Assembly: GCA_003559395.1 (NCBI GenBank)
Contig: PWLL01000069.1
Coordinates: forward strand, 1-5,314
DNA: 5,314 nucleotides
DNA from: Candidatus Iainarchaeum sp.
Lineage (GTDB): Archaea; Iainarchaeota; Iainarchaeia; Iainarchaeales; CSSED10-239
Direction of reading: 5' to 3'
The number at the start of each line of letters is the position of its first letter. Within the stretch, counting starts at the first letter, position 1. The translations under genes and the position numbers were made by a program. Shown here piece after piece: positions 184 to 5,314 of this stretch. The notes under the pieces are model-generated. The model ran no database searches, had not been told where the DNA came from, and saw nothing but the letters and a program-made list of their open reading frames with translations.

Positions 184-1678
184 ATTCCAGCTGATCCTGC
201 TGGTGGGTACTGCTATTGGAATCTGACTAAGACATGCAAGTCTGAAAGCTTCAACTATGAGGAGTTTTGGCAGACGGCTCAGTAACGCGTGGTCAACCTA
301 CCTTTTTGACAAGTTAAACTTGGGAAACTGAGTATAATGCTTGATAGGTAAACAAATCTGGAATGATTGTTTACTCAAAGGTCTTACATTCATGTTTGTA
401 AGATGCAAAAAGATGGGACTGCGTCAGATTAGGTTGTTGGTAGGGTAATTGCTTACCAAGCCAAAGATCTGTACGGGTCTTGAAAGAGAGCGCCCGGAGA
501 AGGGAACTGAGATAATGTCCCTAGCCCTACGGGGTGCAGCAGTTACGAAACTTTTACAATGCGGGAAACCGTGATAAAGAAATTCCAAGTGCCTGCAAAA
601 ACAGGCTTTTGTATAGTGTAAACAGCTATGCGAATAAGGGGAGGGCAATATACGTGCCAGCCGCCGCGGTAATACGTAATCCCCAAGTGGTATCCAGCTT
701 TATTTGGCTTAAAGCGTGTGTAGCTGGTTTATTAAGTCTTTTGTGAAAGCAGTATGCTTAACATATTGAATTGCAAAAGATACTGGTAGGCTAGAGATAG
801 GAAGACGTTGAGGGTATTCTTGGAGTAGGAGTAGAATCTTAAGATACCAAGAAGACCATCTGTGGCGAAGGCGCTCAACGAGGACTAATCTGACAGTGAG
901 ACACGAAAGCTGGGGGCGCAACCCGGATTAGATACCCGGTTAGTCCCAGCCGTAAACGATGCGGATTAGGTGTTGGGATAACCACGAGTTATTTCAGGGC
1001 CGAAGAGAAATCATTAAATCCGCCGCCTGGGAAGTACTGTCGCAAGACTGAAACTTAATGGAATTGGCGGGGGTGCACTACAAGGGGTGGATGCTGCGGT
1101 TTAATTGGATGAAACGCCAGAGAATCTTACCAGAATAGACAGCAAGATGATGGTCAGTCTGAAGGGCTTACCTGATGCGCTGAGAGGTGCTGTATGGTCA
1201 TCGCCAGCTCGTACTGCGAAGCTTCCTGTTAACTCAGGTAACGGGCGAGACCCACATTATTAGTTGCTATCTTGTTTCTTAGAAACAGGAGCACTCTAAT
1301 AAGACTGCATTGGTAACAATGAGGAAGGAGTGGGCGACGGTAGATCTGTATAGCCCGATCGTTCTGGGCAACACGCGGCATACAATGGTTAAGACAAAGA
1401 GTATCTAACCTGAGAAGGGGTGGTAATCTCAAAAACTTAACCCAAGTTCGGATTGTGGGTTGCAACTCACCCACATGAAGATGGAATCCCCAGTAATCGC
1501 ATGTCATTATCATGCGGTGAATATGTCCCTGCGCCTTGCACACACCGCCCATCAAGCCAGTTGAGTAAAGTGTGGATGAATTTTAGTTTACTAAAGGCTA
1601 AAATTATTCTATATTTTGCGAGACGGACTAAGTTGTAACAAGGTGTCCGTAGGGGAACCTGCGGACGGATCACCTCCT
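184..1678 (+). rRNA. rrs: 16S (small-subunit) ribosomal RNA, archaeal, complete (about 1495 nt)
   Basis: Conserved SSU blocks were read directly. They are ATTCCAGCTGATCCTGCTGG (184-), GTGCCAGCCGCCGCGGTAATAC (654-675), GGATTAGATACCC (925-937), AAACTTAATGGAATTGGCGGGGG (1051-1073, archaeal type), GCACACACCGCCCATCAAG (1538-1556), AAGTTGTAACAAGG (1630-1643) and GGATCACCTCCT (1667-1678). Differences in helix 1 (CCAGC/GCTGG versus the usual CCGGU/GCCGG) and in h45 are compensatory, so the gene looks functional. All six track ORFs inside 424-1673 are artefacts of the rRNA. Confidence 0.97.
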
Positions 1679-1698
1679 AAATTTAACGATTGTCTAAA

Positions 1699-1718
1699 AT
1701 TATGTCAATCTCCTAACA
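1699..1718 (+). other. 3' strand of the pre-16S rRNA processing stem
   Basis: ATTATGTCA-ATCTCCTAACA is a continuous 20-nt complement of 141-149 plus 121-131. Confidence 0.7.
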
Positions 1719-1729
1719 CTATTTGAGTC

Positions 1730-1738
1730 TTTTTTTTT
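1730..1738 (+). terminator. oligo-T tract (T9) between the 16S and tRNA-Ala, a candidate archaeal terminator
   Basis: Nine consecutive T residues lie directly after the 3' strand of the processing stem. Archaeal RNA polymerase terminates at oligo-T runs. Confidence 0.5.
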
Positions 1739-1786
1739 ATAACCCTATTATTTTTTAAATAGTTATGACTATATAATATTTATAGA

Positions 1787-1859
1787 GGGCTCTTGGCTCA
1801 GTTGGTAGAGCGCTTCCCTTGCAAGGAAGAGGTCGCGAGTTCGAATCTCGCAGAGTCCA
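1787..1859 (+). tRNA. tRNA-Ala (anticodon UGC), 73 nt, no encoded CCA
   Basis: It folds as a cloverleaf by hand: GGGCTCT/AGAGTCC acceptor with the G3:U70 alanine identity pair, GCTC/GAGC D stem, CTTCC/GGAAG anticodon stem, CTTGCAA loop, GCGAG/CTCGC T stem, TTCGAAT T loop and discriminator A. Confidence 0.97.
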
Positions 1860-1860
1860 C

Positions 1861-1865
1861 TTTTT
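1861..1865 (+). terminator. oligo-T (T5, followed by CTATTTT) after tRNA-Ala(UGC)
   Basis: The T run starts 2 nt after the tRNA discriminator base. Confidence 0.45.
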
Positions 1866-2068
1866 CTATTTTAAATTGTGTTTATATTTTTTTATTTAAC
1901 ACGCGTTGTTTGATTTGTTGGACGAGTTATTTATTTTTTTTCCAAAAATATTTTTCATATTAAATTAAAATAAAATCTATTAAAAAATTTTAAAAAAAGA
2001 TTGATTTTCAAAGATACATATATTTATAAACAATAACAATCACTATATATATAAATCTTTTAAAAAAA

Positions 2069-2074
2069 AGGAGG
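2069..2074 (+). promoter_or_regulatory. Shine-Dalgarno site AGGAGG for ORF 2083
   Basis: It is a perfect complement to the 3' end of the 16S in this window (..GGATCACCTCCT) and lies 8 nt upstream of the ATG at 2083. Confidence 0.6.
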
Positions 2075-2082
2075 AAAAAACA

Positions 2083-2532
2083 ATGTTAGATATATTAATG
2101 AATATACCACAAAACATGGATGCTCTTGGAGCAGCAGGTATATTAGGTTCTTTATTTGCAATGTTTGCAGGTGCTTTTATTGCAGCTCTTGTTGTGATGA
2201 TTGGACTTTACGTATATTACGCTTTAGTTTTCCAAACTATTGCAAAAAAACTAAAATTTGATAAGCCATGGTTAGCATGGATACCAATAGCAAATCTTTT
2301 CTTAATTCCAATTTTAGCTAAAAAACACTGGGCATGGGGATTTATATTTTTAGTTCCTATTGTCAATGCTGTTTTTTACTTTATATGGATGTGGAAAATA
2401 TTTGAGCTTAGAAAATATCCTGGCTGGTTATGTTTAACACCTTTGTTAACAATTATACCATTGATCGGTGTAGTATTTTCTATAGGTTATCTAGTCTTAC
2501 TAGGATTAGTTGCATGGAAAGATTTAAAATAA
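2083..2532 (+). CDS. small polytopic membrane protein (149 aa, about 4 TM segments), hypothetical; resembles DUF5684-type small membrane proteins
   Basis: The ORF is long for DNA this AT-rich and has a strong SD. Hydrophobic segments are separated by short K/W-rich loops, with an internal repeat AWIPIANLF / FLVPIVNAVF. The family assignment is from memory of the (A/W)IPxxN motif pattern and is not a search result. Confidence 0.85.
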   Translation: MLDILMNIPQNMDALGAAGILGSLFAMFAGAFIAALVVMIGLYVYYALVFQTIAKKLKFDKPWLAWIPIANLFLIPILAKKHWAWGFIFLVPIVNAVFYFIWMWKIFELRKYPGWLCLTPLLTIIPLIGVVFSIGYLVLLGLVAWKDLK

Positions 2533-2539
2533 ATCTTTC

Positions 2540-2554
2540 TTTTTTTCTTTTTTT
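2540..2554 (+). terminator. two T7 runs (2540-2546, 2548-2554) after ORF 2083
   Basis: TTTTTTTCTTTTTTT begins 8 nt after the TAA stop. Confidence 0.55.
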
Positions 2555-2561
2555 AAATATA

Positions 2562-2635
2562 GGGCTCTTAGCTTAGTTCGGTAAAGCGCTTGGTTGGCAA
2601 TCAAGAGATCGTGAGTTCAAATCTCGCAGAGTCCA
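2562..2635 (+). tRNA. tRNA-Ala (anticodon GGC), 74 nt, no encoded CCA
   Basis: It has the GGGCTCT/AGAGTCC acceptor with G3:U70, a GCTT/AAGC D stem, a CTTGG/TCAAG anticodon stem, the loop TTGGCAA, a GTGAG/CTCGC T stem, the T loop TTCAAAT and discriminator A. Confidence 0.95.
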
Positions 2636-2651
2636 GAGAAACGTGATATTT

Positions 2652-3362
2652 ATGATTAATCTAAAAAACATATTTTTGTACCCTTTTATAAACATAAAAT
2701 ATTTAATGTTTTTTATGTTATTTTCTTTTTTACCTTTATTATATATGGATTTAGTTTTTCCAGCTTTAATCGTAATTATTTTTCTAACACCTGCCATTAT
2801 TGGTTACAAATTAATAAACAAAAAACTAACAACTTACAAAAAAGACTGTAAGAAAATAACCAACTTTTTTTTAATATCTGCAATAACAACCATCATTTAT
2901 TCTGTTATTCAAGTTATTGTTTTTGTTATTTCTGTTATTATTTTTTATTTGTTTTTTTTATCAATAATTGATTTTATGTTTTTAGAAGATTTTATTATTA
3001 GTCCTTGGGTAATTGCAGGCTTAATTGCTTTATTTATTATTACTTTTATAATAATCTTTTTTGTAGAAATATTAAAAACATTTGGACTTGTAAGATATTT
3101 TAAAACACAAAAATTTAATAAGATCTTTGATATAAAAACACACACAAAACAGATCTTTTCTTCAAACTTTTTTATAGGTTTTTTATATTTTTTAGGATAT
3201 CTGTTAATATATTTGTTGATTGCAACAACTCTAAGCTTTATTATTATTGTTTTCTTTGAATTGTTTGCTGAAAGATTAATTGTTTTTTTATTTTTGTTTT
3301 TAGTATATGTTATATATGCAGGAATAATAAATGTTTGTTATAGAACCATAATTGCAAAATAA
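2652..3362 (+). CDS. polytopic membrane protein (about 236 aa, 5-6 TM segments), hypothetical; possibly DUF4013-like
   Basis: A 720-nt open frame in DNA this AT-rich is unlikely by chance. The product is strongly F/I/L-rich with short K-rich loops. The track ORF opens at GTG 2643, and the first ATG is 2652. Alternative starts are ATG 2706 and ATG 2715, and ATG 2715 lies about 27-30 nt after TTTATAAA (2685-2692). The N-terminal LYPF...P..IGY pattern recalls DUF4013 proteins from memory only. No SD is visible. Confidence 0.72.
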   Translation: MINLKNIFLYPFINIKYLMFFMLFSFLPLLYMDLVFPALIVIIFLTPAIIGYKLINKKLTTYKKDCKKITNFFLISAITTIIYSVIQVIVFVISVIIFYLFFLSIIDFMFLEDFIISPWVIAGLIALFIITFIIIFFVEILKTFGLVRYFKTQKFNKIFDIKTHTKQIFSSNFFIGFLYFLGYLLIYLLIATTLSFIIIVFFELFAERLIVFLFLFLVYVIYAGIINVCYRTIIAK

Positions 3363-3367
3363 TTTAG

Positions 3368-3388
3368 TTTATATATTTTTCTATACTT
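3368..3388 (+). promoter_or_regulatory. candidate TATA boxes for the RNase P RNA gene (TTTATATA 3368-3375; CTATACTT 3381-3388)
   Basis: CTATACTT lies about 27 nt upstream of the first base that can pair in P1 (3408-3410). The T5 run at 3376-3380 may also terminate ORF 2652. Confidence 0.3.
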
Positions 3389-3409
3389 AGATATTTTAAT
3401 GAAGAGATT

Positions 3410-3660
3410 GAAAAGTAGTTAGTGTTTAGCACGAAAGTTTTTTAAAAACTTTTGAGGAAAGTCCACCCACCAACTTTCATCAACATGATGCTTCTGTACA
3501 GAAACAACACGGCTATAAAACAAAAGCAAATGATTTGCAAAAATGATGTGTTTTATAGAATCGCTGAAAGAACAGAAGTCTGGTGCAAGAGATATTTTTC
3601 TCGCTTAGATAAATTGCTATTAACTACAGAAGGTGGCTTATGGCTAACTACTTTCTTTTC
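3410..3660 (+). ncRNA. rnpB: RNase P RNA, archaeal, reduced (about 250 nt), type-M-like C-domain
   Basis: The universal CR-I block GAGGAAAGTCC (3454-3464) and the CR-V block ACAGAAGGTGGCTTA (3626-3640) are present. P4 pairs AAG-U-CCACC (3459-3467) with GGTGGCTT (3632-3639) and keeps the conserved bulged U (3462). P1 is 3412-3422/3644-3654, P2 is 3424-3431/3615-3624, P3 is the hairpin 3432-3454, P5 is CACCA/TGGTG (3468-3472/3581-3585) followed by the conserved GCAAG, P7 is 3474-3478/3566-3570, and small P8 and P9 hairpins lie at 3478-3490 and 3492-3503. A 10-bp P10-12 stem pairs CTATAAAACA with TGTTTTATAG (3513-3522/3549-3558) and is capped by a hairpin at 3526-3538. A short P15 hairpin lies at 3589-3602. 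Confidence 0.9.
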
Positions 3661-3668
3661 AAAAAAAA

Positions 3669-3676
3669 AGGTGATC
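3669..3676 (+). promoter_or_regulatory. Shine-Dalgarno site AGGTGATC for ORF 3681
   Basis: It is an 8-nt perfect complement to the 16S 3' end (GGATCACCT) and lies 4 nt before ATG 3681. Confidence 0.65.
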
Positions 3677-3680
3677 TTAC

Positions 3681-4106
3681 ATGTCAGAAGAACAAATACA
3701 ATTTGTAGCAAACGTAGACAAATTCGTTTCTGTAAAAAAATTAAAAATAGAACCAAAAGTAACAAAAGAAGATATTGTTGAGTTTTTTGCAAGTATCCAG
3801 TTTAGTTGCAATCAAAAGATAGATGATTTTCTTGAAAAAATAGTAGATGTAGTAAAACTACAAGAACAAACAAATCAACTATTTGATTTAAAATTTAATG
3901 AATTTTATGAAGAAATCAATAAACCTAAAACCAAAAAGATAATAACAAGTCTTTTACCAAGCCATATAGAAAAAAAACAAAAAGATGCTTATGTAGAGGC
4001 AATAAGAGTTTATCTTTTAAATAAGTTTTGTGTGAAAAATAAAATCATCCTAAGCTATAACCAAGTTGTTTTTCCATCAAAGAAAAAGATAATGAAAAAG
4101 AAATAA
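3681..4106 (+). CDS. hypothetical protein (141 aa), K/E-rich, probably soluble and helical, with no family recognised
   Basis: This is the longest frame in the region, with an excellent SD and a C-terminal lysine tail. The overlapping track ORFs 3452-3781 (+) and 3553-3792 (-) are explained by the RNase P RNA instead. Confidence 0.8.
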   Translation: MSEEQIQFVANVDKFVSVKKLKIEPKVTKEDIVEFFASIQFSCNQKIDDFLEKIVDVVKLQEQTNQLFDLKFNEFYEEINKPKTKKIITSLLPSHIEKKQKDAYVEAIRVYLLNKFCVKNKIILSYNQVVFPSKKKIMKKK

Positions 4107-4128
4107 TATCTTTATAAAGGTTTATTTG

Positions 4129-4138
4129 CCTATATATT
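4129..4138 (+). promoter_or_regulatory. candidate TATA box (CCTATATATT) for tRNA-Tyr
   Basis: The C-TATATAT motif lies about 34 nt upstream of tRNA position 1, which would give a transcript leader of only a few nt. Confidence 0.4.
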
Positions 4139-4163
4139 ATATAAACAAAAATAAATTGTTTAT

Positions 4164-4264
4164 CCCTCCTTAGCATAGCGGCTAATGCGTCCGGCTGTAG
4201 ACAAAAGGCAACATCGCTTTTGGCGGTGACCGGAAGATCCCCAGTTCGAATCTGGGAGGAGGGA
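4164..4264 (+). tRNA. tRNA-Tyr (anticodon GUA) with a 28-nt intron at canonical position 37/38; mature length 73 nt, no encoded CCA
   Basis: It has a CCCTCCT/AGGAGGG acceptor with the C1:G72 pair typical of archaeal and eukaryal tRNA-Tyr, a GCAT/ATGC D stem, a TCCGG/CCGGA anticodon stem (4190-4194/4230-4234), the spliced loop CTGTAGA, the variable loop AGATC, a CCCAG/CTGGG T stem, the T loop TTCGAAT and discriminator A. Confidence 0.93.
4201..4228 (+). other. tRNA-Tyr intron with a canonical helix-bulge-helix-bulge-helix splice motif
   Basis: The outer helix pairs CAAAAG (4202-4207) with CTTTTG (4217-4222). The 5' bulge is AGA (4199-4201). The central 4-bp helix pairs CTGT (4195-4198) with GCGG (4223-4226), including two G:U pairs. 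The 3' bulge is TGA (4227-4229), followed by the anticodon stem. Cleavage after the second bulge nucleotide on each side gives an intron of 4201-4228. Confidence 0.85.
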
Positions 4265-4274
4265 ATTGATTCTA

Positions 4275-4288
4275 TTTTTCTGTTTTTT
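4275..4288 (+). terminator. oligo-T runs (T5 at 4275-4279, T6 at 4283-4288) after tRNA-Tyr
   Basis: TTTTTCTGTTTTTT starts 11 nt after the tRNA 3' end. Confidence 0.5.
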
Positions 4289-4344
4289 ATAAATCAATAA
4301 ACCTTTAAAAACAAACACTATATATATTTATGAGGGTTTTATAA

Positions 4345-5097
4345 ATGAGAAAAAAAATTTCAGAAAATCCATTGTATGATAGACTAAAAAGAACTAATAA
4401 ATCAAAGATAAAAACACCAGCACTTAAGTTTAAAATAAGCAAAATAGGAAATGTTGGGCTAGTTACAAGCCCAAAAGCAAGAATCATTATTAAAAAACAG
4501 CCAAACTTAATACCAGAGTTTTTAAGATTTATAAAACAAAGTAAAACAACAATGAAAACAAGTTCTTTTTTATTTAGAAGATTAGAACAAAAATCATTTT
4601 TAATAATTGTTGAAAATACAAAGTTTATTGTTCAAAAAATAACAAAACCAAAAGATCAAATAACTCCTCAAAAATGGGCTTCTCATGCATTTAATTCTGC
4701 AGTAATTGTTGAAGCTTTAAAAAAACAAGGAATAAATACTGTACCACTACATTTTGCGTTTACAAATCTTAAAAAGAAAGAAAGTTTTCTTGCTTATGAA
4801 CACCTGAACCTAAAAAACATAAAGCAAGCAAGAGAAGAAAAGATTATTACAGAAAAAGAACATGCAGAATTTAAAGAAAACATGTTACAGATATATACTA
4901 CTTATAGAGACAAAATAAAAACAAAAGAACTAAATATTGGTTTAAGAAAAGAAAAATTGTCTTTTTTCTTTCTCTTAGAAGAAGAAGTATTAGTTGATCC
5001 AAAAACAAAAAAATTATATGTTAATCCAACAACAGAAACACGAGAAAATCTTCAAAAAAAATTAGCTTCTGTAAGTGAGTTTGATGTGCTTCTTTAA
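4345..5097 (+). CDS. hypothetical protein (250 aa), very lysine-rich, with no confident family
   Basis: The open frame is 753 nt. GAGGG lies at 4332-4336, and CACTATATATAT (4316-4327) lies about 27 nt upstream of the ATG, so the mRNA is either leaderless or SD-led from an upstream TATA at 4286-4294. The central segment (IVQKITKP...AVIVEALKKQGINTVP...SFLAYEHL) loosely recalls the N-lobe and hinge of RIO/Bud32/Kdo-type kinases, but I cannot see an HxD...N catalytic loop. Confidence 0.85.
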   Translation: MRKKISENPLYDRLKRTNKSKIKTPALKFKISKIGNVGLVTSPKARIIIKKQPNLIPEFLRFIKQSKTTMKTSSFLFRRLEQKSFLIIVENTKFIVQKITKPKDQITPQKWASHAFNSAVIVEALKKQGINTVPLHFAFTNLKKKESFLAYEHLNLKNIKQAREEKIITEKEHAEFKENMLQIYTTYRDKIKTKELNIGLRKEKLSFFFLLEEEVLVDPKTKKLYVNPTTETRENLQKKLASVSEFDVLL

Positions 5098-5244
5098 AAG
5101 AAAATTATGTGTTTTGTAAGATTTGTTGGACGTCAATCGTGGACACATAAACTCCACAAAACCTTAAAAATTTTAAAAACCCTAAAAACACAAATATTTA
5201 AATATCTTCTTTTTATAACATATATAGTAACTTGTTAGATATTT

Positions 5245-5314
5245 ATGGCACAACAGACAGGTTTGCAAAAACCAGAAAGTATAATTATACAAAAGATAGA
5301 AGAAAACATAAAAA
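5245..5314 (+). CDS. 5' end of a CDS running off the window (MAQQTGLQKPESIIIQKIEENIK...)
   Basis: The frame from the ATG at 5245 stays open to the window edge. TTTATAAC/CATATATA (5212-5226) lies about 26-30 nt upstream, which fits a leaderless transcript. It is too short in this window to assess the coding signal. Confidence 0.4.
   Translation, partial: MAQQTGLQKPESIIIQKIEENIK

Follow-up and report, generated by a model that had tools for sequence, protein, structure and literature searches.

A compensated A:U pair at positions 1405:1496 of the 16S rRNA decoding site: a probable clade character of the Iainarchaeota that recurs in other lineages

As a rule written into the consensus of small-subunit rRNA models, positions 1405 and 1496 (E. 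coli numbering) at the top of helix 44 (h44) are G and C. In the stretch of DNA analysed here (5,314 nucleotides of contig PWLL01000069.1 of Candidatus Iainarchaeum sp., assembly GCA_003559395.1, referred to as the window), the 16S rRNA gene has A and U at these positions instead. We consider it probable that this A1405:U1496 pair is a genuine, inherited compensatory substitution that was fixed early in the Iainarchaeota, and that the organism is a relative of Ca. Forterrea. The history we propose is that the substitution became fixed near the base of the phylum and has been inherited since; that selection would keep Watson-Crick pairing atop h44 while base identity is free; and that the passage from G:C to A:U would most likely have gone through a tolerated G/U wobble, C1496U occurring before G1405A. 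Because an A:U pair can take the place of G:C isosterically and nothing else in the decoding site has changed, normal decoding function is expected, and the change would be near-neutral for translation; the altered drug-binding face, the lost methyltransferase substrate and the primer mismatches described below would then be by-products. That G:C is the ancestral state is taken from the Rfam consensus, which has G and C in upper case here, and from general knowledge.

The decoding site and its gene

The window carries a complete archaeal 16S rRNA gene at 184-1678 on the forward strand, which matches the archaeal model RF01959 with 1349.5 bits (gathering score 50) over model positions 1-1478 of 1478. 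The features of the gene and of the sequence downstream of it are as follows.

184-1678, + strand: archaeal 16S rRNA gene (RF01959); its 3' terminus is the anti-Shine-Dalgarno sequence GGATCACCTCCT
1550-1554, + strand: 5' strand of the decoding site (C1404, A1405, U1406, C1407, A1408), canonical except at 1405
1551, + strand: A at E. coli 1405, where the consensus is G (RF00177, RF01959)
1555-1629, + strand: rest of helix 44, 75 nt, starting with A1409:U1491 (1555:1629) and G1410:C1490 (1556:1628)
1557, + strand: C1411 facing A1489 (window 1627), a C/A mismatch two pairs below the A site, flagged 'v' in both models
1630-1635, + strand: 3' strand of the decoding site (A1492, A1493, G1494, U1495, U1496, G1497), canonical except at 1496
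1634, + strand: T (U in RNA) at E. coli 1496, where the consensus is C, partner of 1551 (RF00177, RF01959)
1644-1667, + strand: helix 45 (h45) with the clade signature UGUCC...GGACG, two more compensated pairs relative to the archaeal consensus cagCC...GGcug
1787-1860: tRNA-Ala(TGC), downstream of the 16S gene
2083-2532: small membrane-protein ORF
2562-2635: tRNA-Ala(GGC)
2643-3362: second membrane-protein ORF
3414-3652: reduced archaeal RNase P RNA
3681-4106: DUF2666 ORF
4163-4265: intron-bearing tRNA-Tyr
4345-5097: further ORF

The 3' part of the gene was aligned to both small-subunit covariance models, RF00177 (bacterial) and RF01959 (archaeal). The window reads CACACCGCCCATCA at 1541-1554 and AAGTTGTAACAAGG at 1630-1643, and both models place 1551 on the consensus G of CCGcCCGUCA (E. 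coli 1405) and 1634 on the consensus C of AAGUCGUAaCAAGG (E. coli 1496), in agreement with the positions that an earlier note on this DNA had assigned to the two bases. The two columns are partners in the structure line of both models, the match line gives 1551:1634 as ':' (a compensated standard pair) with no 'v' flag, and posterior probabilities are '*' throughout. Both sides of a consensus pair have been changed (G:C to A:U) and a standard Watson-Crick pair has been kept at homologous positions, which bears out the reading of the two changes as a true covariation of paired bases. The neighbours are canonical, namely C1404:G1497 (1550:1635), U1406/U1495 (1552/1633) and C1407:G1494 (1553:1632), and so are A1408 (1554) and A1492/A1493 (1630/1631). 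When isolated h44 was folded with A:U, G:C, G/U or A/C at this position, the energies differed by no more than 0.5 kcal/mol, and thermodynamic folding of the isolated helix did not predict its two-pair top helix for A:U; such folding is uninformative, because upper h44 is held by its ribosomal context.

Two unusual bases at these positions could also come from errors of sequencing or assembly, from a chimera, or from mutation of a decaying pseudogene. The sole independent assembly found, a Logan contig from SRR490129 (L001), is identical to the window in their overlap and begins at window 1652, 18 nt downstream of 1634, and so reaches neither 1551 nor 1634; a sequence look-up of the 36-aa ORF spanning 1634, aimed at an independent assembly, returned no match. 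Against an artefact stand the match to the full archaeal model with an intact 3' end, the very low chance that two independent errors would fall on paired positions and restore their complementarity, and the recovery of the same two bases in 47 + 8 related loci that come from many separate projects, including the closed genome of Ca. Forterrea. Because A:U is carried by over 50 related genomes that were assembled independently, sequencing error and gene decay, which the earlier note had also discounted, can be set aside as having next to no chance of being the explanation.

The surroundings of the gene differ in organization from those of many relatives. In the window the rRNA genes are not linked (protein genes, and no 23S gene, come after the 16S gene and tRNA-Ala(TGC) in 1679-5314), while the order 16S-tRNA-Ala-23S is kept in many other Iainarchaeota loci, for example L074, L090 and L121. 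The second alanine tRNA, tRNA-Ala(GGC), lies 700 nt downstream of tRNA-Ala(TGC), and the acceptor and T arms of the two are near-identical. The tRNA-Tyr(GTA) at 4163-4265 has a 28-nt intron in its anticodon loop and is detected by the intron mode of ARAGORN; it is absent from the default tRNA scan and from the Rfam matches at the gathering threshold. With 239 nt versus a 288-position model, and several collapsed internal elements, the RNase P RNA at 3414-3652 is markedly reduced; it scores 96 bits against a gathering score of 84.

Distribution of the A:U pair

Carriers of a base other than G at 1405 were sought in one genome per GTDB species, by the pattern CCGCCC[not G]TCA followed, after 60-90 nt, by AAGTNGTAACAAGG. 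The scan is selective for non-G1405 and yields numerators only; all its counts are lower bounds (at least 119 loci). At least 118 of these are rRNA loci with non-G1405, and one further locus (L054) is a chance match outside rRNA. Among the 118 rRNA matches listed, the states at 1405/1496 are A:U in 112, U:A in one, A/C in two, C/C in two and U/C in one, so that 113 have the complementary base at 1496 and five are uncompensated. With a complement at 1496 in 113 of the 118 listed, the changes at the two positions are not independent, and pairing is the property that is conserved. A:U is, among the matches listed, the common alternative to G:C at 1405:1496. The five uncompensated loci (L027 and L055 with A/C, L057 with U/C, L089 and L093 with C/C) could be evolutionary intermediates, assembly errors or pseudogenes.

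At least 47 loci carry the h45 signature of the window (UGUCCGUAGGGGAACCUGCGGACGG), and 43 of the 47 listed fall into one cluster with the window when the 3' 700 nt are compared at a threshold of 80% identity. Those that are named are all Ca. Iainarchaeum, Diapherotrites or Forterrea, that is, members of the phylum Iainarchaeota within the DPANN. The closest named relative among the matches listed is Ca. Forterrea multitransposorum (L034, closed genome, CP045477), with 88.8% 16S identity; the loci L043 and L096 reach 90.5%, the full-length range over the loci listed is 75% to 90.5%, and partial loci labelled 'Ca. ainarchaeum sp.' are up to 93% identical. With named members of the phylum as its nearest relatives, the 16S gene of the window can be assigned by sequence to the Iainarchaeota (Diapherotrites). 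A first neighbour-joining tree of whole 16S genes was distorted by partial sequences and by one intron-bearing gene, and is used only qualitatively. Within the clade, h44 is 68-80 nt long. The C1411/A1489 mismatch is confined to a Forterrea-like family of nine loci plus the window (10 sequences, with the 3' end ...ACT); 38 of the 48 h45-signature sequences (47 with A:U, and L121) have ...GCT, i.e. C:G at 1411:1489.

A sample drawn without regard to the state of 1405 gives the same picture. The proteins of the window were tried as anchors for finding relatives and dropped, and a UbiA neighbour was used instead, because outside the Forterrea-like family the gene order of the window is not kept. 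In many Iainarchaeota a gene for a UbiA-family prenyltransferase (PF01040) is the immediate neighbour of the rRNA operon (in 13 of the 47 clade loci checked for ORFs; examples are L005 at about 1987-2930, L002, L018, and L123-L136 from 10001 onward), and all 138 of 138 database matches to it have E < 1e-10, the named sources being Diapherotrites or 'archaeon'. Ten homologues of this rRNA-adjacent gene were taken, with the length of the contig as the sole basis for the choice; the 3' end of the 16S gene could be reached in eight of the ten contigs, and all eight have both A1405:U1496 and the h45 signature. Compared with the nearest earlier locus, these eight 16S genes show 79-97.7% identity, and they therefore represent additional lineages. 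The sample is small (eight), covers only genomes with UbiA beside the rRNA operon, and sets the upper 95% bound on G:C at about 31%.

A reverse search for G:C together with the h45 signature of the clade, in 241 million JGI metagenome records, returned one contig (L121; again a numerator only), which contains the final 147 nt of a 16S gene, a tRNA-Ala and the start of a 23S gene. All 200 bootstraps (100%) of a neighbour-joining analysis of the 5' end of 23S place L121 together with the A:U loci L090 and L074. L121 represents either a reversal within the clade or a chimeric contig end; since its G:C is nested beside A:U lineages, A:U is not absolutely fixed in the clade unless the end of this contig is chimeric. 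The clade tally thus stands at no fewer than 56 A:U sequences (47 scan loci, eight UbiA-anchored genes and the window) versus one with G:C, and the h45 signature is almost perfectly linked to A1405:U1496 in these data.

The breadth of base composition in the clade bears on a second explanation, namely that the pair drifted to A:U under AT mutational pressure in a very AT-rich genome. The GC content of the window is 31.7% (32% overall, 26% in the flanks), both substitutions run from GC to AT, and many of the A:U carriers are AT-rich symbionts, all of which would suit such a drift. However, A:U is equally present in clade members with 44-55% flanking GC (for example L002 with 55% and L115 with 52%), the 16S genes of the clade themselves have 43-55% GC, and the adjacent G:C pairs 1404:1497 and 1407:1494 are unchanged. 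Across the h45-signature clade, A:U is present at flanking non-rRNA GC from 21% to 55%; AT drift of the genome of the window therefore does not explain it, and we hold this account to be very improbable.

Some further observations concern individual members of the clade. The 16S gene of L063, from a related metagenome-assembled genome (MAG), is interrupted at the equivalent of window ~933/934 by a 746-nt insertion (1121-1866) coding for a LAGLIDADG homing endonuclease of 233 aa (PF14528, E = 1.2e-16), and L023 has a 50-nt insertion at the same 16S site. In MAG ARS1307, two contigs (L018 and L032) each hold a 16S 3' end with A:U, and the two differ in h44, reflecting either two rRNA operons or a mixed bin.

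Outside the clade, the other matches listed fall into about 25 other clusters, from other DPANN, many CPR bacteria, Cardinium and others. By hand count, the rest of the matches listed comprise 11 other archaea, about 35 sequences of CPR/Patescibacteria type, nine of Cardinium/Amoebophilaceae and 16 other bacteria. Among the 11 other archaea listed are two further DPANN-like clusters, one member of the Thermoplasmataceae (U:A) and one of the Methanomassiliicoccales (A/C); A:U itself is also found in other DPANN clusters among the matches listed. Judging from general knowledge of the composition of GTDB, we take DPANN and CPR to be strongly over-represented among the carriers. The question raised in the earlier note, whether A:U is a synapomorphy of one clade, is thus answered in the affirmative for the Iainarchaeota as sampled here (47 loci plus eight of eight), and the pair also recurs in many other lineages. 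For both reasons it is much less exceptional than the single gene might suggest.

In several records the 16S gene conflicts with the name of the record (L037, L088, L081, L103, L041, L046, L095, L099 and L107). These include Iainarchaeota-type 16S genes in Prolixibacteraceae and 'bacterium' bins, a DPANN 16S gene in a 'Campylobacterales' bin, a CPR-type 16S gene in the 'Promethearchaeota Loki_b32' bin, and Amesbacteria- or Levybacteria-type 16S genes in 'uncultured Gammaproteobacteria' bins. Having exposed several such mislabelled bins, the combination of the A:U pair with the h45 signature provides a convenient probe and bin-checking marker. Scans of viral contigs for the motif found no A:U 16S genes; the one viral-contig 16S gene with an archaeal-type h45 was considered as an outgroup and rejected on account of its bacterial-looking h44.

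Drug contacts, methylation and primer sites

The 1405:1496 pair is known from work on bacterial ribosomes as a contact of drugs. Ring III of the 4,6-disubstituted deoxystreptamine (4,6-DOS) aminoglycosides forms hydrogen bonds with O6 and N7 of G1405 and contacts C1496 (PMC12104382, PMC12391297); the N7 of G1405 is the atom methylated by the ArmA/Rmt/Sgm enzymes (PMC2896518), and the resulting m7G1405 abolishes the activity of every 4,6-DOS drug (PMC12391297). On both points, the ArmA/Rmt target and the ring III contacts, the literature is in agreement with what the earlier note had stated (PMC2896518, PMC12104382, PMC12391297). Among mycobacteria, C1496T as the sole change is on record for two M. 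avium isolates resistant to amikacin (MICs 64 and 128 ug/ml), showing that the 1405:1496 pair matters for the 4,6-DOS class; G1491T by itself occurs in highly amikacin-resistant mycobacteria, with an MIC of 256 ug/ml or more (PMC7969740).

The correspondence of 1405/1496 in the window to these drug contacts is one of position, the contacts being known from bacterial ribosomes. As read from the bases, the substitution alters the hydrogen-bonding face of the major groove at the point where 4,6-DOS drugs dock with their ring III in bacterial ribosomes, and by analogy altered aminoglycoside binding in an A:U ribosome is plausible. An A at 1405 leaves m7G1405 methyltransferases of the ArmA/Rmt/Sgm type no guanine N7 and hence no substrate, so that protection or attack by m7G1405-type modification would be irrelevant in A:U lineages.

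These relationships allow an adaptive reading, in which A:U was selected, here and convergently elsewhere, for removing the O6/N7 face of G1405 on which 4,6-DOS aminoglycosides, or natural ligands like them, depend, giving intrinsic resistance. The dependence of ring III on G1405 O6/N7 and its contact with C1496 (PMC12104382, PMC12391297), the loss of all 4,6-DOS activity upon m7G1405 formation (PMC12391297), the two M. avium isolates with C1496T alone (PMC7969740), and the recurrence of A:U in about 25 sequence clusters among the matches listed are all in keeping with it. On the other side, the A site of the window already has U at 1491 (window 1629), and because the pocket is thus probably a poor drug target anyway, little would be gained from A:U; A1408 is retained; recurrence is to be expected regardless, since no compensated path is easier than the one from G:C through G/U to A:U; and the carriers are mainly fast-evolving lineages with reduced genomes (DPANN, CPR, Cardinium), for which relaxed constraint fits at least equally well. 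We therefore regard selection for drug resistance as an unlikely origin of the pair.

A broader version, for which we likewise see only a slim chance, is that A1405:U1496 might be a variant of the decoding site that prokaryotes with ultrasmall cells or a dependence on hosts have come to favour convergently, an adaptation altering docking in the major groove of h44. If that were true, the convergent set would consist of the Iainarchaeota, at least two other DPANN groups, several CPR lineages and Cardinium, and they might benefit, for example, by being naturally unaffected by 4,6-disubstituted aminoglycosides or by some factor from a host or competitor. Compensatory substitution with inheritance within the phylum remains the reading that we prefer over these adaptive ones.

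A more practical consequence concerns primers. The two changes fall in the 1392/1406 and 1492 universal primer sites, as the earlier note had indicated; we computed the mismatch positions on the window from sequences of 1492R, 1406F, 1391R and 1392R that we take to be the standard ones.

1537-1553, + strand: target of 1391R, 1392R and 1406F; one mismatch, at 1551
1630-1651, + strand: target of 1492R; three mismatches, at 1634, 1645 and 1646

In 1406F the mismatch at 1551 affects the last base but one at the 3' end, in 1391R and 1392R it is close to the 5' end, and 1634 is four bases in from the 3'-terminal base of 1492R. Since the sampled Iainarchaeota mismatch both 1492R and 1406F, they would be under-detected in full-length 16S and ARISA-type surveys. 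Mismatches between common primers and the 16S genes of DPANN have been described in general terms (PMC8407392).

Comparison with known systems

Cunningham et al. reportedly mutated exactly positions 1405/1496 in 1993. A search of the searchable literature for variation at 1405/1496, or for G1405A or C1496U mutants, found only the M. avium C1496T report, and no account of the A1405:U1496 pair itself, of a ribosome that carries it or of its bearing on primers. Known systems with which the pair can be compared are the 1494/1555 pair of human mitochondrial 12S rRNA, resistance methylation of G1405, clinical rrs mutations, and lineage signatures of small-subunit rRNA.

The mitochondrial pair (E. 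coli 1410:1490) is an h44 polymorphism near the A site that is associated with aminoglycoside ototoxicity. Like the pair in the window, it is a natural polymorphism beside the A site that affects pairing, and there it affects drug susceptibility as well; unlike it, a different pair is involved, and a single mutation turns a mismatch into a pair, whereas here one pair has replaced another. The C1411/A1489 mismatch of the window is the closer analogue of the mitochondrial 1410/1490 C/A case.

Methylation by ArmA, RmtA-H and Sgm affects the same nucleotide and the same major-groove face (N7/O6) (PMC12391297, PMC2896518). It differs in being an acquired enzymatic modification, while in the window the base and its partner are replaced in the gene itself, a chromosomal and ancient state. 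Mycobacterial rrs mutations (A1408G, C1409T, G1491T/C and C1496T) share with the window the 1496U and U1491 states (PMC7969740); the clinical changes are recent single substitutions that therapy has selected and that have no compensating partner, whereas the 1496U of the window is paired with 1405A and is found phylum-wide.

The closest likeness is to the compensatory changes that serve as lineage signatures in small-subunit rRNA: both members of the pair are replaced, Watson-Crick geometry is kept, the change is clade-wide and diagnostic, and function would be retained. What sets the present pair apart from them is its location inside the decoding centre, at positions that are upper-case G and C in both Rfam consensuses. 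A1405:U1496 thus appears to be a classic lineage-signature compensatory change, outside the classes of resistance methylation and clinical rrs mutation, and it is slightly unusual for its decoding-centre location at a strongly conserved pair and for its recurrence in many reduced-genome lineages. The event is of a familiar kind and opens no long-standing question; its value is as a natural, phylum-wide demonstration that 1405:1496 need only be Watson-Crick, and as a natural variant for gauging the share of G1405 O6/N7 in the binding of 4,6-DOS aminoglycosides.
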